Of a stretch of 64,000 nucleotides of DNA, positions 2,139 to 49,253 are shown in pieces. Source of the stretch: Candidatus Syntropharchaeum caldarium (GTDB lineage Archaea; Halobacteriota; Syntropharchaeia; Syntropharchaeales; Syntropharchaeaceae); contig LYOS01000001.1 of assembly GCA_001766815.1 (NCBI GenBank), positions 148,998 to 212,997 on the forward strand, given 5' to 3'. The notes below the pieces were generated by a model. The model made no database searches and had not been told where the DNA came from. It worked only from the letters and a program-made list of their open reading frames with translations. Within the stretch, counting starts at the first letter, position 1. Each line of letters begins with the position of its first letter. The position numbers and the translations under genes were made by a program.

Positions 2139-5100
2139 ATGGTGAAATGTGTGAGGCGATTGATAGCGGTATTTTTAATCTCGTTATTTATATTCCCGTT
2201 GGTATCTGCAGATCTCAGAAAGGATCTCACAGATAACCTCCCTCTAAGTGTAAGATCTCCTTCTGGTACTGAGACCCTGATCTGCGGTTACCTGTTTGAG
2301 AGGGGATCTACAGGCAGTGTAAGGATCACAAACCTCAACACCAGTTTAAGCTGGGATGCAAGGCTACTTGAGTCAGAGCCAGACTTCTACTACCTCTATC
2401 TCGATGAAATTGAGCTTAAAGCAGGAGATATGCTCAGGCTCAACGCAACCTCAGGTGATGAATCGGTCGTATTAATTCATACCGTAAACCAGAGTGAGAT
2501 CGATGAGCATCTGGTGTGGCTTGATATCATCGAGGATCTTGCGATAACAGAGATCACAATACCAAACAGAATTACAAAAGATATCAACACCACTATCCAC
2601 GCCGTAATTGAGAATATTGGACTGATACCAGTCGTTGTACCCTTCAATATTACATTCAGCGTTGATGGAGAACTCATAACTACTACCTCTTTTACAGAAG
2701 TTCCTTTAAACGCCAGTGAGAACTTTACCGTAGAATTTTATTGGACTCCTCTGGAATCCGGGATACACAACATCACAATCACTGTGGATCCGAATCATGA
2801 AATTATATCAGAGACGAATGAATCGAATAATCGAATGAAGAAAAGCGTGTCTGTTGCTGAACTACCTTCGTTTTATGTGCCACTGGACTTTCCCACGATT
2901 CAAGATGCGGTGGATAATGTAACAATTAACGGAACCACGATTTATGTCGCAAGCGGCACGTATAACGAGAATATAATGATTCAAAAGCAGATCACACTTC
3001 TGGGAGCGGATATGAATGATACAATCATAGACGGAGGTGGGAACGATACATTAAGGCTTTTTGCGAATAATTGTGTCATCAGAGGTTTTTCGATAATTAA
3101 TGGGAGCACAGGTATAAAGATCGAATCCAATGGCAATAAAATCTTTGAAAATTGGATTTATAACAACTCCTGCGGCGTAAATATCACCGGATTAAATAAT
3201 ACCGTTTATCATAATAATCTGAATAATGTTCAGAACGGATTTGATACCGGTAATAGTTCGTGGGACGATGGAAGGGAAGGAAACTACTGGAGCGATTGTA
3301 CCGGCGATGATTTCGATCTCAATGGGATTGTAGACACGCCTTATGAATGCGGGTGGGTAACGGATCGATATCCTTTAGTTTCTCCATATGTACTGCACAG
3401 AGACCCGGCAATCGCGTATCTCACTGTCCCCACATCTATTTATGTGAATGAAACGAATACTATCTTTGTGGGCATTGCCAATTACGGCACTTCAGAAGTG
3501 GCAAGCAATCTCTCACTCAAACTCGGTGGCACTATTCTGAACATGACGATTTCTCTACCATATAAGAGCATAAACGCTGTTTATTTCTGCGTGACTCCGA
3601 ACCAGATGGGGACAATAAACCTAACAGCGGAGATAGAGGCATGCAATGAAGATTCAAATAGAGCAAACAACCGGATGAGCGTGAATGTTACGGTAATTCC
3701 TTCGCCTTTTAAGCGCCTTTACAATTTTGATAACGAAACAACTATGGCGGAATATTATAAATATCAACTTCCTGAAAGCAGAACGAATGCTCTGGATTAC
3801 TTAGCAATGCAGCAGAATTCTGACGGCGGCATCGGTCAGGGTGGCTATTCGACAGATCTGGCTATTATAGCGGTATCATCTGCTGGAGAGAATCCGCAGG
3901 AGTTTGCGAGACTGAATTCGTCGCTTACAGATTATTTAAAAGCGCATCCGCCTCAGCATGACCTGACTTTAATATCTCGCTATGTGCTTGCGATTATCGC
4001 TTCTGGTGAGAATCCGCGTGATTTTGGTGGTAAAAACTATCTTGCGATGATTCAATCATTCTTCGATGGAGAACAGTTTGGAATTGAGAAGAATATCGTG
4101 GATGATGCGTGGGCTGTGCTTGCACTTACCGGAGCAGGATATGGCAATGACACAGAAATTATGCGAACTGAAAGGAATTATATTCTCAGGTGTCAGAATG
4201 AGAGTGATGGCGGATGGCCGTATTTTGAGAATGGAACGAGCTCAATCGATGTAACTGCGATAGCATTAGAAGCTCTGGTTGCTTCTGGTATAGCTGTGGA
4301 TAATAGTTCGATACAGAATGGCACGAAATATTTGGAAAAAAATCTTGTGAAGAATCAATGGGAAGAGGGGATGGGGCAGACAGACCCACTGCCAGAATCC
4401 AATCTGAAAAATTATGCTCATTCAGTCCAGGCAATCGTTGCTGTTGGAGGGAATCCGATAGATGGAAGCTGGGATTATTCGCAGAGTGCAGCTACATACT
4501 ACGGGATTGAAAACCCATACAACCCGCTACTTCTGCTCTTGGGACTCGAAGAGAAGTCGGGCGATTTTGAAGGTGGATTCGCGTTCACATTTAAAGATTC
4601 TTATCCCGAACCTAAATGGACATCAATGGCACTCCCCTCGCTGTTCGCAAAGCCATATCCTTCGATGTGCACGTATAGCCGGGTGCTATCAGACATAAAG
4701 CCCATTCATATAGGGACACGGGCTTGCTACACCAATGTTACAAATATTATCAATGCAACAATCAAGAACAACGGCGGGATATTCAACGTGAGTCTTCTTG
4801 TGGATGGTGCCGAGGTTGACCGCGCGAGAATTGTGGAGACGAATTCAACTGCATTATCGCGGGTGGAATTCAGATGGCTGCCAGAGAAAGAAGGGGAATA
4901 TAACCTCACCGTTGTGGCAGATTCTGAGAATTCAATAGAAGAGAATAATGAGAGCAATAACTGCATCGGCCGCGTGGTCACTGTGACGAAGCCAGACCTG
5001 CACCCCAGGACAGAACTGCCAGCATTCTATGTCAATGTGACAAACAGAATAGAAACAGAAGTTTTAGGATACGGCGAGGGATTCAACGTATCGCTTCTTA

Positions 5101-8039
5101 TAAATGGAAGCGTTGTAGATAAAGCCGAGAATATCAGCTCTTATGGCTTTAATAAAACAACGTTATACTGGAAGCCAAACCAAACGGGTAACTACACTCT
5201 TAGACTCATCGCTGATTCGGAAAACGATGTATTTGAATCCGATGAGAAGAATAACACCATAGAAGAGAATGTCAGTGTAATACTGCCCGACCTATATCCT
5301 CAGAATATAAGCACTATGATACTGTACACCGATACCGAGAACATCATAGATGTCAGCATCAACGGCTCAGCAGAAGGATTTAACGCGACTTTATTTGCAA
5401 ACGGAACGATTGCAGATAAAATCGAGAACATTTCATCTTATAACGTGGCGAATATCAGTTTTTCGTGGAACCCCCTGCTGGCAGGTGTTTACAACCTCAC
5501 AGTGATGGTAGATGCTGATGATGAGATAGAAGAGACGAACGAAACGAACAACAATCTGAGTCGTATTGTAACCGTAGAGAATCGAGAAGCGCCATACATA
5601 AAACTACTCGCTCCGATAGGTGGTGAATGCTGGAGCGGTGTGCAGACGATAAAGTGGAGTGCAACCGACCCGAACGGCGATGAACTAATAATAAACATCA
5701 GCTACAGCCCGGATGCAGGAATAATGTGGCATCCAATTGCAAGCAATCTTGAGAACACAGGCTATTATAATTGGAGCACCGAGTACATGCTGGATGGATA
5801 TGATTATAAGGTAAAAGTAGAAGCATTTGATGGGAATTCTACCTCAGTGGATATCTCAAAAGATGTATTCACAATCTACAACAGGAGATCGTATGAGGGG
5901 GCACCAAGCTTCCATTATAATGCGGGTTTCTCACTCTCGGAAGCGCCGAATACGAATAAAACTGCGTGGATAACCGAAGATATTGGTGCATGCCCTTCCA
6001 CTTCTCTTATTGTTGCCGATGGTAAGGTCTTTGTCTACTGCTATGACAGTGTGAAGGCACTGGACGAATTAAATGGCAGCACAGACCTAAATGGCAGCAC
6101 AAAACCCATCTGGAGCACATCCATAGATAAGGCTGTTTATGGCTCGTGGGCGACTGCGGCATACTACGACGGATCGGTATTCATAGCTTCAGGAAATCAT
6201 GTTTACCGAATTAGTGCTAAAGATGGAAAGATAGAATGGAGGTTCCAATTCCCTGATGGGGGGTGCAGTGTGAATAGTGGTCCGTGTGTTGCATACGGAA
6301 ATGTATATGTGGGTTCATGGAACGGGGGGCACTATTACTGCTTGAATGACTCAACTGGAGAAATAAAATGGCAATTTCCTCCAAAAGGTGAAAAGAAACT
6401 GGATCACGCACAATCAACACCAGCAGCACATAACGGAATGGTCTTCTTCGGTGATTTTACAGGCGGACCGAAATCAAAGGTTTTTGCCGTTGATGGACTT
6501 ACAGGTGAAGAGATATGGAATCAAACAGTTTCGTGGAGTGTCTGCGGCTCCGTTACGATTGCGCACAATAAGGTATACCTCATGACATATAATTTCTATG
6601 GTTCAGGAGAGTTTTATGCACTCAATGAAAATAACGGAAGCATTGTCTGGCAACATACGATTGCAAGGTCCGATTCTACACCGGCGCATGCGTATGGAAA
6701 CATCTATGTCTGTGGTGGATGCCCAGGTTATGAGCGGTGTAGAACATACTGTCTGAATGATGCAGACGGAGGAAACGAGACCTGGAATGTGCCTGATTGG
6801 GGGATATGGACATATTCACCGATGGTTGCAGATAAGAAAGTATTTATTGGTAAAGCAGAGGGACCGGGGATGGACAGTATGCTCCCAGCAGGGATGTCTG
6901 CTCGTAATGCCTTTACCGGAGAAGAGATATGGCGTTCAGATCTCGGCGGTGGTTCACCCGCGATTGTGCATGGGAGGGTATATACCGTGGGGGGTGTTAA
7001 TGCAACGGGCAGAGTTATCTGTTTCGGCTCTACAAACCAACCAGACCTCGAACTGAGTAATCTCACTACGGTTCCAAAGTCAGATATCTATGTCGGTCAA
7101 AATGTTTCAATCAATGTGACACTCAGAAATATTGGCTCTGGTAACGCTTCTGCATTTAACGTTTCTTTACGAGTTAATGGTGAGATAGAAGCGGAAAAAA
7201 GAATTGATGATGGACTTAATGTAAACGTTAGCATGCCTGTGAATTTCTCGTGGACTCCAGTAGAAGCTGGGGAGTATCTTATCATCGTTGAAGCGGATTC
7301 GGATCACGAAATTACCGAGCAGGTTTCAATGCCAGACAATAATAAGGTTAGTAGACCATTAACGGTAAAAGAGTGGCTGGACTTGGCAGTGGAGGATATT
7401 GATTATTATCCAACGGAGGTTCACGTTGGGGATATTGTGAATATAACACCCTCTATTACGGCGGTAAACCTCGAAGGGGAAAGTGTTGGGGTTGAGTTTA
7501 AAGTTGATGATGAAAGTAAAGAGACAAAGAGAGGCGTAGTTAACGGAGAGCAGATAACTGTAAACTTCACATGGAATGCTTCGAGTCCTGGCGGGTATAA
7601 CCTGACGATAGTCGCCGATCCGGGTGGTGGGATAGATGAAGTTAACGAGACGAATAACGAGACGACAATAGTGGTGGAAGTGATGCCAACGCCAACACCA
7701 ACATCCACTCCAACTCCCGGCTTACCCCACGGTTATGGCGGTGGTGGAGGTGGTGGCTCCGGGATATTTGACTGGGGCGAGTTCTTCGGATCGGGTACAG
7801 GCAGTGAGGGCAATGAAACAGGTGAATTTACGATCCCGATAAATGAGACAGAATCTGTGATTGAAGAAGATTCATCGCGTGTGAATGGCTATCCAATGGG
7901 TGAGGAGACCGGAGGAAGTGCGGGCGGTGGAGGAAAGATCTCTTATATCTGGATCCTCATCGTAACCCTGACGCTTGCCCTTGTGATCTATGGTTACTGG
8001 CGAGAGTCGAGGTTTATCGGTAGGAGGAGGAGAAGATGA
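2139..8039 (+). CDS. Giant secreted, membrane-anchored surface protein, paralog 2 (1966 aa): signal peptide, multiple CARDB domains, parallel beta-helix, alpha/alpha-toroid (prenyltransferase-like) region, PQQ-like beta-propeller, C-terminal TP-rich and Gly-rich linker, TM helix, poly-Arg tail
   Basis: Single 5.9 kb ORF. N-terminal MVKCVRRLIAVFLISLFIFPLVSA signal-like segment; beta-helix motifs (TIYVASGTYNENIMIQKQITLLG, NNCVIRGFSIINGS); toroid-like repeats (QQNSDGGIGQGG, CQNESDGGWPYFENG); many NxS/T sequons; C-terminus TPTPTSTPTPG..GGGGGGGSG..ISYIWILIVTLTLALVIYGYWRESRFIGRRRRR. Confidence 0.8.
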   Translation: MVKCVRRLIAVFLISLFIFPLVSADLRKDLTDNLPLSVRSPSGTETLICGYLFERGSTGSVRITNLNTSLSWDARLLESEPDFYYLYLDEIELKAGDMLRLNATSGDESVVLIHTVNQSEIDEHLVWLDIIEDLAITEITIPNRITKDINTTIHAVIENIGLIPVVVPFNITFSVDGELITTTSFTEVPLNASENFTVEFYWTPLESGIHNITITVDPNHEIISETNESNNRMKKSVSVAELPSFYVPLDFPTIQDAVDNVTINGTTIYVASGTYNENIMIQKQITLLGADMNDTIIDGGGNDTLRLFANNCVIRGFSIINGSTGIKIESNGNKIFENWIYNNSCGVNITGLNNTVYHNNLNNVQNGFDTGNSSWDDGREGNYWSDCTGDDFDLNGIVDTPYECGWVTDRYPLVSPYVLHRDPAIAYLTVPTSIYVNETNTIFVGIANYGTSEVASNLSLKLGGTILNMTISLPYKSINAVYFCVTPNQMGTINLTAEIEACNEDSNRANNRMSVNVTVIPSPFKRLYNFDNETTMAEYYKYQLPESRTNALDYLAMQQNSDGGIGQGGYSTDLAIIAVSSAGENPQEFARLNSSLTDYLKAHPPQHDLTLISRYVLAIIASGENPRDFGGKNYLAMIQSFFDGEQFGIEKNIVDDAWAVLALTGAGYGNDTEIMRTERNYILRCQNESDGGWPYFENGTSSIDVTAIALEALVASGIAVDNSSIQNGTKYLEKNLVKNQWEEGMGQTDPLPESNLKNYAHSVQAIVAVGGNPIDGSWDYSQSAATYYGIENPYNPLLLLLGLEEKSGDFEGGFAFTFKDSYPEPKWTSMALPSLFAKPYPSMCTYSRVLSDIKPIHIGTRACYTNVTNIINATIKNNGGIFNVSLLVDGAEVDRARIVETNSTALSRVEFRWLPEKEGEYNLTVVADSENSIEENNESNNCIGRVVTVTKPDLHPRTELPAFYVNVTNRIETEVLGYGEGFNVSLLINGSVVDKAENISSYGFNKTTLYWKPNQTGNYTLRLIADSENDVFESDEKNNTIEENVSVILPDLYPQNISTMILYTDTENIIDVSINGSAEGFNATLFANGTIADKIENISSYNVANISFSWNPLLAGVYNLTVMVDADDEIEETNETNNNLSRIVTVENREAPYIKLLAPIGGECWSGVQTIKWSATDPNGDELIINISYSPDAGIMWHPIASNLENTGYYNWSTEYMLDGYDYKVKVEAFDGNSTSVDISKDVFTIYNRRSYEGAPSFHYNAGFSLSEAPNTNKTAWITEDIGACPSTSLIVADGKVFVYCYDSVKALDELNGSTDLNGSTKPIWSTSIDKAVYGSWATAAYYDGSVFIASGNHVYRISAKDGKIEWRFQFPDGGCSVNSGPCVAYGNVYVGSWNGGHYYCLNDSTGEIKWQFPPKGEKKLDHAQSTPAAHNGMVFFGDFTGGPKSKVFAVDGLTGEEIWNQTVSWSVCGSVTIAHNKVYLMTYNFYGSGEFYALNENNGSIVWQHTIARSDSTPAHAYGNIYVCGGCPGYERCRTYCLNDADGGNETWNVPDWGIWTYSPMVADKKVFIGKAEGPGMDSMLPAGMSARNAFTGEEIWRSDLGGGSPAIVHGRVYTVGGVNATGRVICFGSTNQPDLELSNLTTVPKSDIYVGQNVSINVTLRNIGSGNASAFNVSLRVNGEIEAEKRIDDGLNVNVSMPVNFSWTPVEAGEYLIIVEADSDHEITEQVSMPDNNKVSRPLTVKEWLDLAVEDIDYYPTEVHVGDIVNITPSITAVNLEGESVGVEFKVDDESKETKRGVVNGEQITVNFTWNASSPGGYNLTIVADPGGGIDEVNETNNETTIVVEVMPTPTPTSTPTPGLPHGYGGGGGGGSGIFDWGEFFGSGTGSEGNETGEFTIPINETESVIEEDSSRVNGYPMGEETGGSAGGGGKISYIWILIVTLTLALVIYGYWRESRFIGRRRRR
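6282..7304. repeat. Copy B of the exact ~1.0 kb direct repeat (partner at 1-1023), inside giant protein paralog 2
   Basis: See copy A; encodes the same PQQ-propeller/CARDB block in both paralogs. Confidence 0.85.
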
Positions 8040-45444: not shown

Positions 45445-46056
45445 ATGAAAAAGAAAGCAAAAGAGCTTATTGAGAGGATGTTACTTGCGCTGGGATTCAG
45501 CCTGCTTTTTGGTATCATGCTTCTTGGACCGGATTTTCGAAATGGACTCGGTACTTTTGTAGGGAGCTTCATGAACCCTATTGCAGCATTAATCCCGTTT
45601 CATCTGCTTATTGTGATTCTTGCGATCGTGACAGGTGTATATGCAAGCCTCATCCAGAAGTACACGATCGACTGGGAGCTTATGCGCCGGGTCCAGAAGA
45701 AGATGCGGGAATTTCAGAAGGAATTTCGTGAGGCACAGCAGCAGGAAAATAAGTACAAGCTCAAAAAACTTCAGGAGCAGCAGGTAGAGATGATGCAGGA
45801 ACAGGCGGAGATGTCAAAGCAGCAGTTCAAGCCGATGGCGTATATCGGAATCGTCTCAATACCACTCTGGATGTGGATGTATCAGTATGTTGTAGAGTAC
45901 AAAGATGTTCTTCCTCCACTGATCCTTCCGATTGTTGGTGAGAAAGCGTTGATGGATCCATGGTTCTTCCTGCATTACTGGATCCTCTGGTATATTGTCT
46001 GCTCGATTCCATTTGGGGCGCTCATGCGCAAGATTCTGAACGTCGGTGGGATTTAG
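45445..46056 (+). CDS. DUF106 membrane protein (archaeal Oxa1/YidC-like insertase family)
   Basis: Three TM helices with a central coiled, charged segment; conserved position after adenylate kinase. Confidence 0.65.
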   Translation: MKKKAKELIERMLLALGFSLLFGIMLLGPDFRNGLGTFVGSFMNPIAALIPFHLLIVILAIVTGVYASLIQKYTIDWELMRRVQKKMREFQKEFREAQQQENKYKLKKLQEQQVEMMQEQAEMSKQQFKPMAYIGIVSIPLWMWMYQYVVEYKDVLPPLILPIVGEKALMDPWFFLHYWILWYIVCSIPFGALMRKILNVGGI

Positions 46057-46588
46057 TGTGATCATCACCATTGGAGGATTGCCGGGGAGTGGGTCAACAA
46101 CGGTCGCGCGTATTTTATCAGCACGACTCGGTCTCGAATATATCTCATCAGGCGAGATCTTCAGGGAACTTGCAAAGGAACGGGGCGTGACGCTCGAGGA
46201 GTTTGGAAAGATCGCGGAAGCGGATGATACAATCGACAGGATGATCGATGAAAGACAGAAGAAGATCGCGTCCAGTCGGGAAGATCTGATCGTTGAGGGA
46301 AGACTTTCAGGGATCCTACTCAGGGAGTATGCGAATCTGACCGTCTGGCTAAAGGCACCGCTTGATGTGAGGGTTGAACGAGTAACAGAACGGGATGCCC
46401 TCGATCGATCGAGACTTCTAACCCTGATCAAAGAGCGGGAACACTCTGAGTGGATCAGATACAATGAATACTATGGTGTTGACCTCAAGGACCTCTCTCT
46501 ATATGATCTTGTGATTGATACATCTCGCTGGAGTGCAGAAGAAGTTACAGATATCATTTTAATGGCAGTGGAGCTTTCTTCAGGATAG
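46046..46588 (+). CDS. cmk: Cytidylate kinase, archaeal type (GTG start)
   Basis: P-loop GGLPGSGSTTVA. Confidence 0.85.
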   Translation: MGFSVIITIGGLPGSGSTTVARILSARLGLEYISSGEIFRELAKERGVTLEEFGKIAEADDTIDRMIDERQKKIASSREDLIVEGRLSGILLREYANLTVWLKAPLDVRVERVTERDALDRSRLLTLIKEREHSEWIRYNEYYGVDLKDLSLYDLVIDTSRWSAEEVTDIILMAVELSSG

Positions 46589-47116
46589 ATTTAGAACCTT
46601 CTCGATATCATCCAGCCGTTCAAGAACCTCGATTCCACGCATCTTTCGCAACGCATCGACATTCTTAACGTCTTCCTCTCTTATCCTGAGCTTCATCTTT
46701 TTCCCGTCAGGAAGAACTGTCTCAACCTCACCTACTTTTTGATCAACAGGAAATATATAAACAGGAATACCGACCTTCATCGCCTGAGAAGCCGCATTTG
46801 ATAGGAGCGTATCAGCGATCCCGTGTGCGATCTTTGCGACCGTGTTTGCGGTAGCTGGTGCAATTATAAAATAATCAAACTCATTCATCTGAAGTTTTGC
46901 TGCAAGAAATGGAGCATTCGCACTTTTTTCAACCTTGTAACCTGGAAAAACCTCTTTTACCCTTTTCAAGAGCTTATAGAACTTCAGTACAATCTCGCCC
47001 TCCTTGGAGGCATAGGGGATGATCTCAAGGTCGTACTTCTTCTTTAGTGCTTCCATAAAGTCAACGGTCTCTGTGATTTTATCTCCGCTCCCCGTGATCC
47101 CCCATGCGATTCTGAT
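46580..47116 (-). CDS. Flavoprotein-family protein (CoaC/AfpA-like FMN-binding fold) with non-canonical or missing start codon
   Basis: Conserved N-terminal IAWGITGSGD is encoded in frame upstream of the first ATG (47056) and directly after the TAG stop of the upstream gene (47117-47119); C-terminal IIAPATANTVAKIAHGIADTLL motif. Confidence 0.55.
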   Translation of the reverse strand: MRIAWGITGSGDKITETVDFMEALKKKYDLEIIPYASKEGEIVLKFYKLLKRVKEVFPGYKVEKSANAPFLAAKLQMNEFDYFIIAPATANTVAKIAHGIADTLLSNAASQAMKVGIPVYIFPVDQKVGEVETVLPDGKKMKLRIREEDVKNVDALRKMRGIEVLERLDDIEKVLNLS

Positions 47117-48334
47117 CTACATCACCTTTTCAAGTGTCATATCAAACATCTTCTTTGTCTCACGCGCCAGACCCTCTGGAAGTCCTTTGATATCGATGCT
47201 CAGAAAACCTCGTATTATCATGCCGACTGCCTCATCCTCTGTAAATCCTCTTGCCATCAGGTATCGTATCTCTTCTTCAGCGATCTTTCCAACCGCTGCC
47301 TCGTGCGATAGATCAATATTCTTCCTTCGGGCTTTGAGCTCTGGTATCGACTCGATCATCGAAGAATCTGATAGCATAAGTCCCCTGCACTCAAGGTGTC
47401 CACGCACGTTTTCTGCTTCACCGACGAGATCGCCTTTTGCAATGATTCGTGCATTATCTGTTGCAATTGCCCTTGAGATTATCTCCCCTCTGCTTCCTTT
47501 ACCCTGAAGCACGATCCTCGAACCCGAATCGATATTCGTGTTACCATGTGCATAGATTATCGACTGGAATGATGCCCTTGAATTCTCACCAGCACAGATA
47601 GCAGTGGGATACATCTGGAGGGATTTTACAGGCGTCATGAATATATAGTTACTGATAAATACGCCGTTATCCTCGATAAGCGTGGCACTTCTTGGTCGCA
47701 CATCGACTCCACCCGACCAGTTGTGAACCATCGTGAATGTGATCTTTGCGTTTTTCTTTACATAGAACTCTGATATGCCAAGATGCAGAGCTTCGCTAAC
47801 AGTGTGTGCGACGGTACATCCTGTTATTATATTGAGTTCAGAGTTCTCCTCTGCGATTACGATATTGTGAACATTCTGCCTGATCTTATCCTTTGATATG
47901 AAGAGACAGGACTGTAGCGGTAACGTGATCTTCGTACCTTTTTCTGCCCGCAGGAAGTACCCCTGGGTCGGCCTTTCCGCAACTTCTTTCGTGTAAATAT
48001 CCTTATCAGCAGGGACGATATTCCAGAGGTATTCATCAAGCCAGGAATGTTTCTTAATGGCTTCTTCTGTGCTCAGGATCTCAAGCCCTGGAATCAGTGA
48101 TTTTGCAAATACGACCGAGTGATCCTGCTGTAAGAACGATCCTGATCGTTCCTTTTCTTCTGGATCTATACCTGCTGCAAGTAACTCTCCCTCATACTCA
48201 TCAAGCTCCTTGAGTGATGAGATTGGACCATGCTCTCCTCCCTTAAGCCTGTAGGATTCGATCTTGACCTCTTCAGAACTCACACCTAACACCTTCTTTT
48301 CCGCATTTTGCAACACAGCCTTCAAACCCTTCAT
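47117..48334 (-). CDS. Fe-S cluster assembly protein SufB/SufD family
   Basis: SufBD beta-helix-like C-terminal region; the track start overlaps sufC by 62 nt, so the true start is probably further downstream. Confidence 0.75.
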   Translation of the reverse strand: MKGLKAVLQNAEKKVLGVSSEEVKIESYRLKGGEHGPISSLKELDEYEGELLAAGIDPEEKERSGSFLQQDHSVVFAKSLIPGLEILSTEEAIKKHSWLDEYLWNIVPADKDIYTKEVAERPTQGYFLRAEKGTKITLPLQSCLFISKDKIRQNVHNIVIAEENSELNIITGCTVAHTVSEALHLGISEFYVKKNAKITFTMVHNWSGGVDVRPRSATLIEDNGVFISNYIFMTPVKSLQMYPTAICAGENSRASFQSIIYAHGNTNIDSGSRIVLQGKGSRGEIISRAIATDNARIIAKGDLVGEAENVRGHLECRGLMLSDSSMIESIPELKARRKNIDLSHEAAVGKIAEEEIRYLMARGFTEDEAVGMIIRGFLSIDIKGLPEGLARETKKMFDMTLEKVM

Positions 48335-49031
48335 TCAGGATGTGGTTGTAGATCTCTTCTGTTATGCCTGAGCAGGCGATCCTTCCATCGAGCAGGACAT
48401 GTGCTCTGTCTGCTTTTATGTAGTTTAAGATGTATCCGATGTGGGAAATTATGAGGGCAGACTTTTGACGCTCGCTGGGTCTTCTGTCACGCTCAAGCAT
48501 CTCGTTTGTTATTTTACCAAGAAGCTCCACGTTCTCAACATCAACACCCGAATCAGGCTCATCAAACATGAAAAAGTCAGGGTTCTGCGCAAGAAGCTGT
48601 AAGATCTCAGAGCGTTTCACCTCTCCTCCAGAGAAACCGAGATTCAGATCCCGGGAAAGGAACTCTTCTGAGAGGTTCAGCCTTCTGGCAAGTGCTTTTG
48701 CATCGCCACCACCTCTTCTCTCAAGAAGCTGTCCCACAACATCACCGAGCTTCACACCCCTGATTTCAGGGGGATGCTGGAAGGATACGCCCATCCCGAG
48801 CTTTACTCGATCTGTGGTATTAAACTCGGTTATATCAACACCCTTGAAGTATATCTTTCCTTCAACGACGTTATATCCTGGAAACCCGAGTATCGTCAAA
48901 AAAAGCGTTGTTTTGCCGGATCCATTTGCACCAAAGAGAACATGAACCTCTCCCTCGCCGATATGGAGGTTCAGATCATTGAGTATCCGCTTACCTCCAA
49001 CCTCGACCGAGAGATTCTGAATCTCAAGCAC
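48273..49031 (-). CDS. sufC: Fe-S cluster assembly ATPase SufC
   Basis: Walker A GANGSGKTT, signature FSGGEVKRSE, Walker B FMFDEPDSG. Confidence 0.9.
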   Translation of the reverse strand: MLEIQNLSVEVGGKRILNDLNLHIGEGEVHVLFGANGSGKTTLFLTILGFPGYNVVEGKIYFKGVDITEFNTTDRVKLGMGVSFQHPPEIRGVKLGDVVGQLLERRGGGDAKALARRLNLSEEFLSRDLNLGFSGGEVKRSEILQLLAQNPDFFMFDEPDSGVDVENVELLGKITNEMLERDRRPSERQKSALIISHIGYILNYIKADRAHVLLDGRIACSGITEEIYNHILNEGFEGCVAKCGKEGVRCEF

Positions 49032-49253
49032 CTAAATCGCCTCCACGGATGCAATCTCTGGCACCTTCTCCCTTATCCGCTGCTCAATAACATTTGCAAG
49101 CGTCATCTGTGAGAATGCACAACCTGCACATGCACCTTGAAGCCTCACCTTCACAACACCGTTCTCATCGACATCGATAAGCTCAACATCTCCGCCATCT
49201 GCCTGCAGGAACGGTTTTATCTCGTTTATTACTGCTTCCACTCTCTCTTTCAT
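49032..49253 (-). CDS. NifU-like (Nfu-type) Fe-S cluster scaffold/carrier domain protein
   Basis: GACAGCAFS CxxC motif in a 73 aa protein. Confidence 0.75.
   Translation of the reverse strand: MKERVEAVINEIKPFLQADGGDVELIDVDENGVVKVRLQGACAGCAFSQMTLANVIEQRIREKVPEIASVEAI

Follow-up and report, generated by a model that had tools for sequence, protein, structure and literature searches.

A candidate AUC start codon for the archaeoflavoprotein gene afpA of Candidatus Syntrophoarchaeum caldarius

Here, we present evidence that afpA, the archaeoflavoprotein gene of Candidatus Syntrophoarchaeum caldarius (a butane-oxidising archaeon of the Halobacteriota, taxid 1838285), probably starts at an AUC codon. 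The gene lies on the minus strand of a 64,000-nucleotide (nt) stretch of contig LYOS01000001.1, which we call the window and to which all coordinates refer. We consider it likely that afpA, in this species and in a sister species, is a functional, full-length gene of 178 codons, with initiation at AUC (47116-47114 in the window) directed by a Shine-Dalgarno (SD) sequence and possibly coupled to termination of the upstream gene, sufBD.

Results

On the minus strand, sufBD ends with GAA AAG GTG ATG TAG, read as EKVM and a stop (TAG, 47119-47117). The codons that follow, in frame and with a gap of 0 nt, are ATC AGA ATC GCA TGG GGG ATC ACG GGG AGC GGA GAT (IRIAWGITGSGD), then AAA ATC ACA GAG ACC GTT GAC TTT; only then comes an ATG (47056-47054, codon 21), followed by GAA. 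The stretch between TAG and Met-21 translates as IRIAWGITGSGDKITETVDF, and MEALKK follows it. None of these 20 in-frame codons is ATG, GTG or TTG. In the list of open reading frames (ORFs), the earliest such codon in the afpA frame is accordingly ATG 47056, which yields a protein of 158 aa identical to GenBank OFV68546.1, 'archaeoflavoprotein AfpA [Candidatus Syntrophoarchaeum caldarius]'. An initial annotation of this DNA, whose coordinates were all exact, had placed a conserved flavoprotein N-terminus upstream of that ATG, in frame directly after the sufBD stop. Our analysis agrees with it. The corrected coding sequence would run from ATC 47116 to the stop codon TGA 46582-46580 (46580-47116, minus strand, 178 codons plus stop).

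By every criterion tested, this gene is a bona fide afpA. The ORF belongs to the Flavoprotein family (PF02441, 95 bits), and the 178-aa reading scores 238.7 bits against the AfpA model TIGR02699 (cutoff 192.45), with protein residues 2-175 aligned end to end on profile positions 1-174 of 174. Because the profile begins at protein residue 2, ATC occupies the initiator position; the ortholog alignment places it there too, as the initial annotation had supposed. Identity to annotated AfpA proteins is 55-78%. The alignment to the closest solved structure, PDB 3WIS/4MWG (DmrB/AfpA), likewise starts at residue 2, and by homology to that structure and from the literature (PMC6193120), AfpA would bind flavin mononucleotide (FMN) and transfer electrons. 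A tblastn search of the window revealed no second afpA copy that could make this one dispensable.

Codons 2-20 (47113-47057, RIAWGITGSGDKITETVDF) encode the first beta-strand, the conserved TGSGD loop and the first half of helix 1. Codons 2-12 read RIAWGITGSGD, in which A4, W5, T8, G9, G11 and D12 are invariant in 32 homologs. An AlphaFold model of the 178-aa protein (pLDDT, the predicted local distance difference test score, 93.2) has a predicted Rossmann-like flavoprotein fold, in which residues 2-7 form beta-strand 1, residues 8-13 the loop and residues 14-28 helix 1. On this model, beta-strand 1, the TGSGD loop and half of helix 1 would all be lost with a start at Met-21. The invariant residues and the model thus both uphold the earlier claim that such a start deletes the IAWGITGSGD loop, and among the orthologs none lacks the loop at the DNA level.

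The ATC codon is conserved. In addition to the window, seven sequences (L054, L055, L058, L044, L048, L056 and L057) make up what we call the ATC clade, and ATC at codon 1 is invariant in all eight. The string GTG ATG TAG ATC occurs in 6 distinct haplotypes from 7 datasets (ENA, JGI and Logan). L054, which does not differ from the window, carries it; over 3,667 nt, a Logan contig from SRR3669912 has 100% identity to the window. TAG-ATC is also present in L055 (SRR3679449; 99.4% nucleotide identity to the window), L058 (SRR21418557; 98.7%), L044 (ENA ERZ27227317; 98.3%, 60 mismatches in 3,615 nt) and L048 (JGI Ga0164310; 97.6%). L056 and L057 (JGI 3300009431 and 3300013120) carry the same junction at just 84-86% DNA identity to the window, a distance at which they represent another species-level lineage. 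Since these two share the junction, ATC predates, on this comparison, the split of the two species. An error of sequencing or assembly that hides a true ATG, one of the options raised initially, has nothing in its favour beyond prior plausibility, and the recurrence of the junction in independent assemblies across 6 haplotypes, 7 datasets and two species-level lineages reduces its probability to practically nil; no assembly shows ATG at 47114-47116. We therefore discarded this explanation.

Codons 2-20 have been translated, and constrained, since ATC arose. For this test we compared the window with L056/L057; both sides bear ATC, so the comparison post-dates the loss of the canonical start. 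Across codons 2-20 there are 6 synonymous and 3 nonsynonymous differences (proportions pS 0.49 and pN 0.067, ratio 0.14), 7 of the 9 fall at third positions and 0 at first positions, and the pattern departs from the neutral expectation (binomial P = 0.005). From codon 21 to the end, pN/pS is 0.12. It is this match, in both pN/pS and third-position bias, between codons 2-20 and the rest of the gene that argues for their translation. The amino-acid changes (R2K, T15I and D19E) are conservative and fall at positions that also vary among orthologs, while the six invariant residues are unchanged. L058 adds 3 further synonymous and 0 nonsynonymous changes in codons 2-20. Over the whole gene, strains of Ca. 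S. caldarius differ by 7 synonymous versus 2-4 nonsynonymous changes (P = 0.0007-0.004). An untranslated leader or RNA element cannot, on these comparisons, yield so three-periodic and synonymous-rich a pattern. Together with the lack of a canonical start, this coding-type selection bears out the earlier view that a non-standard mechanism is needed.

These data also bear on the existing annotation. Met-21 is the start used by gene callers and by GenBank, and it is the first canonical start codon, so translation might begin solely at ATG 47056; alternatively, the gene might be a decaying pseudogene whose start was lost. We regard either case as very improbable. Purifying selection on codons 2-20 equals that on the remainder of the gene, a 158-aa product would be without the first beta-strand, the invariant T8, G9, G11 and D12, and half of helix 1, and no SD-like motif precedes ATG 47056. 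As for decay, the afpA ORF is intact in 8 of 8 ATC-clade sequences, with pN/pS of 0.05-0.16. Both possibilities were rejected on the selection analysis and the structure model.

Relatives indicate how the AUC codon may have come about. We located the initiator-aligned codon in 48 orthologous loci. Outside the ATC clade, every one of them has ATG, GTG or TTG at the initiator position or a few codons upstream, and an in-frame stop immediately ahead of the initiator position is seen in the ATC clade only. The nearest sister lineage, comprising Ca. S. butanivorans BOX1 (L001) and the metagenomic loci L045-L047, L049 and L050, is ~77% identical to the window in DNA and 77-78% in protein. It shares the operon nifU-sufC-sufBD-afpA and a sufBD gene that ends GAG AAG GTG ATG TAG. 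After the TAG, however, come one spacer base (C or T) and then TTG AGG ATT GCA TGG, so that TTG stands behind the same AAGGTGAT SD and afpA lies in the +1 frame relative to sufBD. In L051, from a further Syntrophoarchaeum clade, the sequence is AAAGGTGAT-acaagc-TTG AAG ATC GCA TGG, that is, AAGGTGAT plus 6 nt plus TTG, behind a gene other than sufBD; L053 has a GTG start. Adjacency of sufBD and afpA is limited to the ATC clade and its sister, and other Syntrophoarchaeum and ANME-1 (anaerobic methanotrophic archaea group 1) loci have other upstream neighbours. The sufBD TAG itself is kept in both the ATC and the TTG clades.

From this distribution, the ancestral state is reconstructed as a weak but canonical TTG behind the AAGGTGAT SD, and the change in the window clade as a switch from TTG to ATC together with deletion of the 1-nt spacer, which incidentally brought afpA into frame with sufBD. 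The TTG starts and the AAGGTGAT motif of the sisters and L051 imply that the initiation site and SD were inherited and that the codon alone changed. A simple G-to-C replacement of ATG by ATC, as suggested at first, does not fit, since the sisters have TTG one base after TAG. We had also considered reading a switch of serine codon class (TCC to AGC) as a sign of selection along the window branch; this was dropped, as outgroup L051 uses AGT and the polarity is unclear.

The SD sequence of the window is AGGTGAT (47127-47121), located within the last sufBD codons, AAG GTG ATG. Over 7 nt it is complementary to the 3′ end of archaeal 16S rRNA, AUCACCUCCU (PMC7531240), at an aligned spacing of 8 nt from ATC (GGAGG core as reference). 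The clear SDs of the window (at least 6 nt) are mostly spaced at 5-9, and a match of at least 7 nt occurs at just 6 of 61 window starts, which places afpA among the strongest. The codons AAG GTG ATG (47120-47128), together with TAG, are invariant over three lineages (the window, L001, L046, L047 and L056), whereas neighbouring codons vary synonymously. The invariance fits a dual constraint from coding and SD function and adds some weak support for the SD.

Codon 1 is not the only ATC in this region, as codons 3, 7 and 14 are also ATC. Translation could start at another near-cognate codon downstream, such as codon 3 (47110-47108), which would shorten the protein by 2 residues and keep the loop, and the sequence alone does not tell codon 1 from codon 3. 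We consider this quite improbable. The SD would lie 14 nt away, beyond the usual 5-9 of the window; codon 1 is homologous to the TTG, GTG or ATG of relatives; and codon 2 (R/K) is still conservatively constrained. A canonical out-of-frame start combined with a frameshift was rejected: afpA is in frame 0 with TAG, and the nearby ATG 47122 and GTG 47125 are in frame as well and run into TAG.

The gene order nifU-sufC-sufBD-afpA is common to the window, L046, L047 and L056. In the window, the nifU-like gene (49032-49253), sufC (48273-49031) and sufBD (47117-48283) are all on the minus strand. The product of sufBD is a SUF-like SmsB/SufBD-core protein (PF01458, 157 bits). Its match to the NCBIfam SmsB profile reaches position 441 of 445, by which TAG 47119-47117 marks the natural C-terminus of SufBD. 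At the other end of sufBD, a call from the first ATG (48334, 405 aa) overlaps sufC by 62 nt. The relatives are 388-391 aa long with sufC overlaps of 4-11 nt, and for this reason the true start is probably GTG 48283 (388 aa, 11-nt overlap, AAGGTG upstream) rather than ATG 48334.

Downstream, afpA converges on a cytidylate-kinase-like gene (46046-46588, plus strand), with a 9-nt overlap. In relatives (L046 3386-4252, L047 2808-3065, L051 3585-6597), a radical-SAM gene lies 3′ of afpA with an overlap of 11-13 nt, and in L051 mcrB and mcrA come after it. The radical-SAM gene is missing at the afpA locus of the window clade, where afpA is the last gene of the operon. Elsewhere in the window, a very long ORF of 1,966 aa occupies 2139-8039 on the plus strand.

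Discussion

Of the three options offered initially for the missing start codon, an AUC start is the best supported, by the conserved junction, the SD, the selection on codons 2-20 and the TTG starts of homologs. We propose that AGGUGAU in the last sufBD codons positions the small ribosomal subunit upstream of AUC at a normal spacing, and that the ancestral SD and site were retained while AUC replaced UUG as the P-site codon. Two of the three AUC bases can pair with the initiator anticodon, and the codon would be decoded by initiator Met-tRNA with incorporation of Met. In E. coli, AUC initiates at about 0.1-3% of the level of AUG and yields an N-terminal Met (bioRxiv 10.1101/063800), and N-terminal proteomics documents an ATC start for Deinococcus dnaA (PMC2830850). 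Among the putative alternative initiation sites in a ribosome-profiling study of Haloferax, ~30% were near-cognate codons, which were set aside as possible false positives (PMC7261190).

In archaea, termination-reinitiation is efficient only where genes overlap or lie extremely close together, and an SD within the first gene of the pair frequently assists it (PMC6728339, PMC10666635). Because UAG and AUC abut with a 0-nt gap, ribosomes finishing sufBD may perform the initiation partly or wholly. Use of AUC would be expected to lower AfpA output relative to SufBD and to leave the protein unchanged. One C-to-G substitution would be enough to give ATG. As none is seen over ~15% DNA divergence, a low yield of AfpA may be tolerated or favoured.

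Several points weigh against initiation at AUC. In published reviews, AUG, GUG and UUG are the only starts given as established for archaea (PMC7531240), and demonstrated cases of non-canonical initiation are said to be lacking in this domain (PMC8211752). The window offers no sign of generally relaxed start usage: for 10 other ORFs with at least 10 open codons before the first canonical start, no NCBIfam profile reaches upstream of that start. We therefore rejected general permissiveness, and afpA would have to be a specific exception. As cited in PMC6728339, one pair of Sulfolobus genes was not coupled in vitro although its stop and start codons adjoin, so coupling of sufBD and afpA is not assured. 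The AUC start is a candidate, with the role of AUC itself as the initiation codon inferred from comparative data. Finally, the selection signature does not by itself separate AUC initiation from entry through UAG, with which it is equally compatible, and afpA is exactly in frame with sufBD, TAG alone standing between them, whereas the sister lineage has it in the +1 frame.

These last two points raise the possibility that translation enters afpA from sufBD, producing a low-frequency fusion of ~584 aa. Entry could occur by readthrough of UAG (by a near-cognate tRNA, a suppressor or pyrrolysine), or by a hop, in which peptidyl-tRNA-Met jumps from AUG over UAG onto AUC; AUG-UAG-AUC does provide a take-off codon and a similar landing codon. 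We consider such entry unlikely. The in-frame arrangement had a one-in-three chance of arising anyway. TAG is an ordinary stop in the window, where it terminates 12 of 60 long ORFs (20%), and SufBD ends at the normal C-terminus of its family. Adjacency of the two genes is confined to the ATC clade and its sister; the sister has them in different frames, so there was no ancestral fusion, and the best 120 AfpA homologs are all 158-208 aa, none of fusion length. RNA structure around or downstream of UAG, whether resembling a pyrrolysine insertion sequence (PYLIS) or of a readthrough-stimulating kind, is not significant (minimum free energy z = -1.4). Independent initiation is already accounted for by the SD, which is inherited and normally spaced.

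The initial annotation had listed readthrough, including pyrrolysine, as an option. Readthrough as such keeps some small likelihood, but the pyrrolysine version fares worse: in addition to the common use of TAG as a stop and the differing frames of the sisters, there is no tRNA-Pyl in the 64-kb window, whose sole tRNA is tRNA-Gly, and we found no literature tying Syntrophoarchaeum to pyrrolysine. Deliberate bypass of UAG in an archaeon without pyrrolysine, by readthrough or a Met-tRNA hop, is likewise doubtful. If it did occur, the resulting SufBD-AfpA fusion would tether an FMN electron carrier to an iron-sulphur (Fe-S) cluster assembly scaffold, and the enabling event would be the deletion of the 1-nt spacer, through which sufBD and afpA came to share a frame.

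The public record needs revision. OFV68546.1 is without 20 essential residues, including the first beta-strand and the TGSGD loop, and the afpA coding sequence should instead have the limits given above. Metagenomic gene calls of the ATC clade (P0001, P0121-P0124) are all truncated in the same way. Gene callers misplace afpA starts even in TTG-start relatives (L047 2279-2818; L051 ~3064). The start of P0014 (166 aa) is set at an internal ATG, and P0004 (198 aa) is probably over-extended beyond its AAGGTGAT-6nt-TTG start.

Among archaea, afpA would be one of few natural candidates for initiation at a non-standard codon, and it offers a natural, testable substrate for work on reinitiation and on the stringency of start-codon choice (aIF1/aIF2). 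Lineages of the ATC type (caldarius-like) and of the TTG type (butanivorans-like) share metagenomes, as seen for L044 and L047 (ENA ERZ27227317) and for L048 and L050 (JGI Ga0164310). One sample could therefore hold both sides of a comparison of AfpA expression, AUC against UUG. In terms of method, afpA illustrates that genes of this kind can be retrieved from metagenomes by looking for conserved N-termini that lack a start and then for codon-level selection among relatives.

Comparison with known systems helps to place these observations. The protein resembles other AfpA archaeoflavoproteins (TIGR02699), whose relatives DmrB and DmrX are FMN-dependent (PDB 3WIS/4MWG; PMC6193120), in its full-length profile match, its IAWGITGSGD N-terminus and its predicted fold. 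Only the start codon and the tight sufBD junction set it apart, along with the absence of the downstream radical-SAM partner at the window locus.

With respect to its start, afpA resembles the bacterial genes with AUN starts, such as Deinococcus dnaA (ATC, PMC2830850) and infC and pcnB (ATT/ATA). In each case, a conserved, essential N-terminus lacks ATG, GTG or TTG, and a near-cognate AUN codon, conserved across species, occupies the position of the canonical start of homologs; gene callers mis-annotate such genes, and low or tunable expression is expected. However, afpA is archaeal, with eukaryote-like initiation machinery (aIF1, aIF1A, aIF2), and its start is a candidate drawn from sequence comparison. 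Unlike infC, which encodes IF3, afpA has no evident autoregulatory logic. In-frame UAG followed by conserved coding sequence is also a feature of UAG-pyrrolysine recoding, readthrough and hopping (PMC8211752). There the likeness ends, since TAG is a common stop in the window, the window shows no Pyl machinery, and afpA was ancestrally independent of sufBD: it is a distinct gene that has an SD to itself and that relatives carry in a different frame.

Finally, the arrangement of sufBD and afpA recalls the termination-reinitiation pairs, overlapping or abutting, of archaea and bacteria (Huber et al. 2019, PMC6728339; PMC10666635), which are similarly co-directional and which share with it the 0-nt gap and a strong SD within the 3′ portion of the first cistron. 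Documented pairs use a canonical NTG restart, typically in ATGA or TGATG overlaps, whereas the restart codon of afpA would be AUC and its coupling is deduced from the arrangement. By analogy with these systems, afpA would combine the AUN-start type of gene with the architecture of abutting cistrons that undergo termination-reinitiation. What would be new is the domain, Archaea, and the quality of the comparative evidence; afpA is a well-supported candidate.

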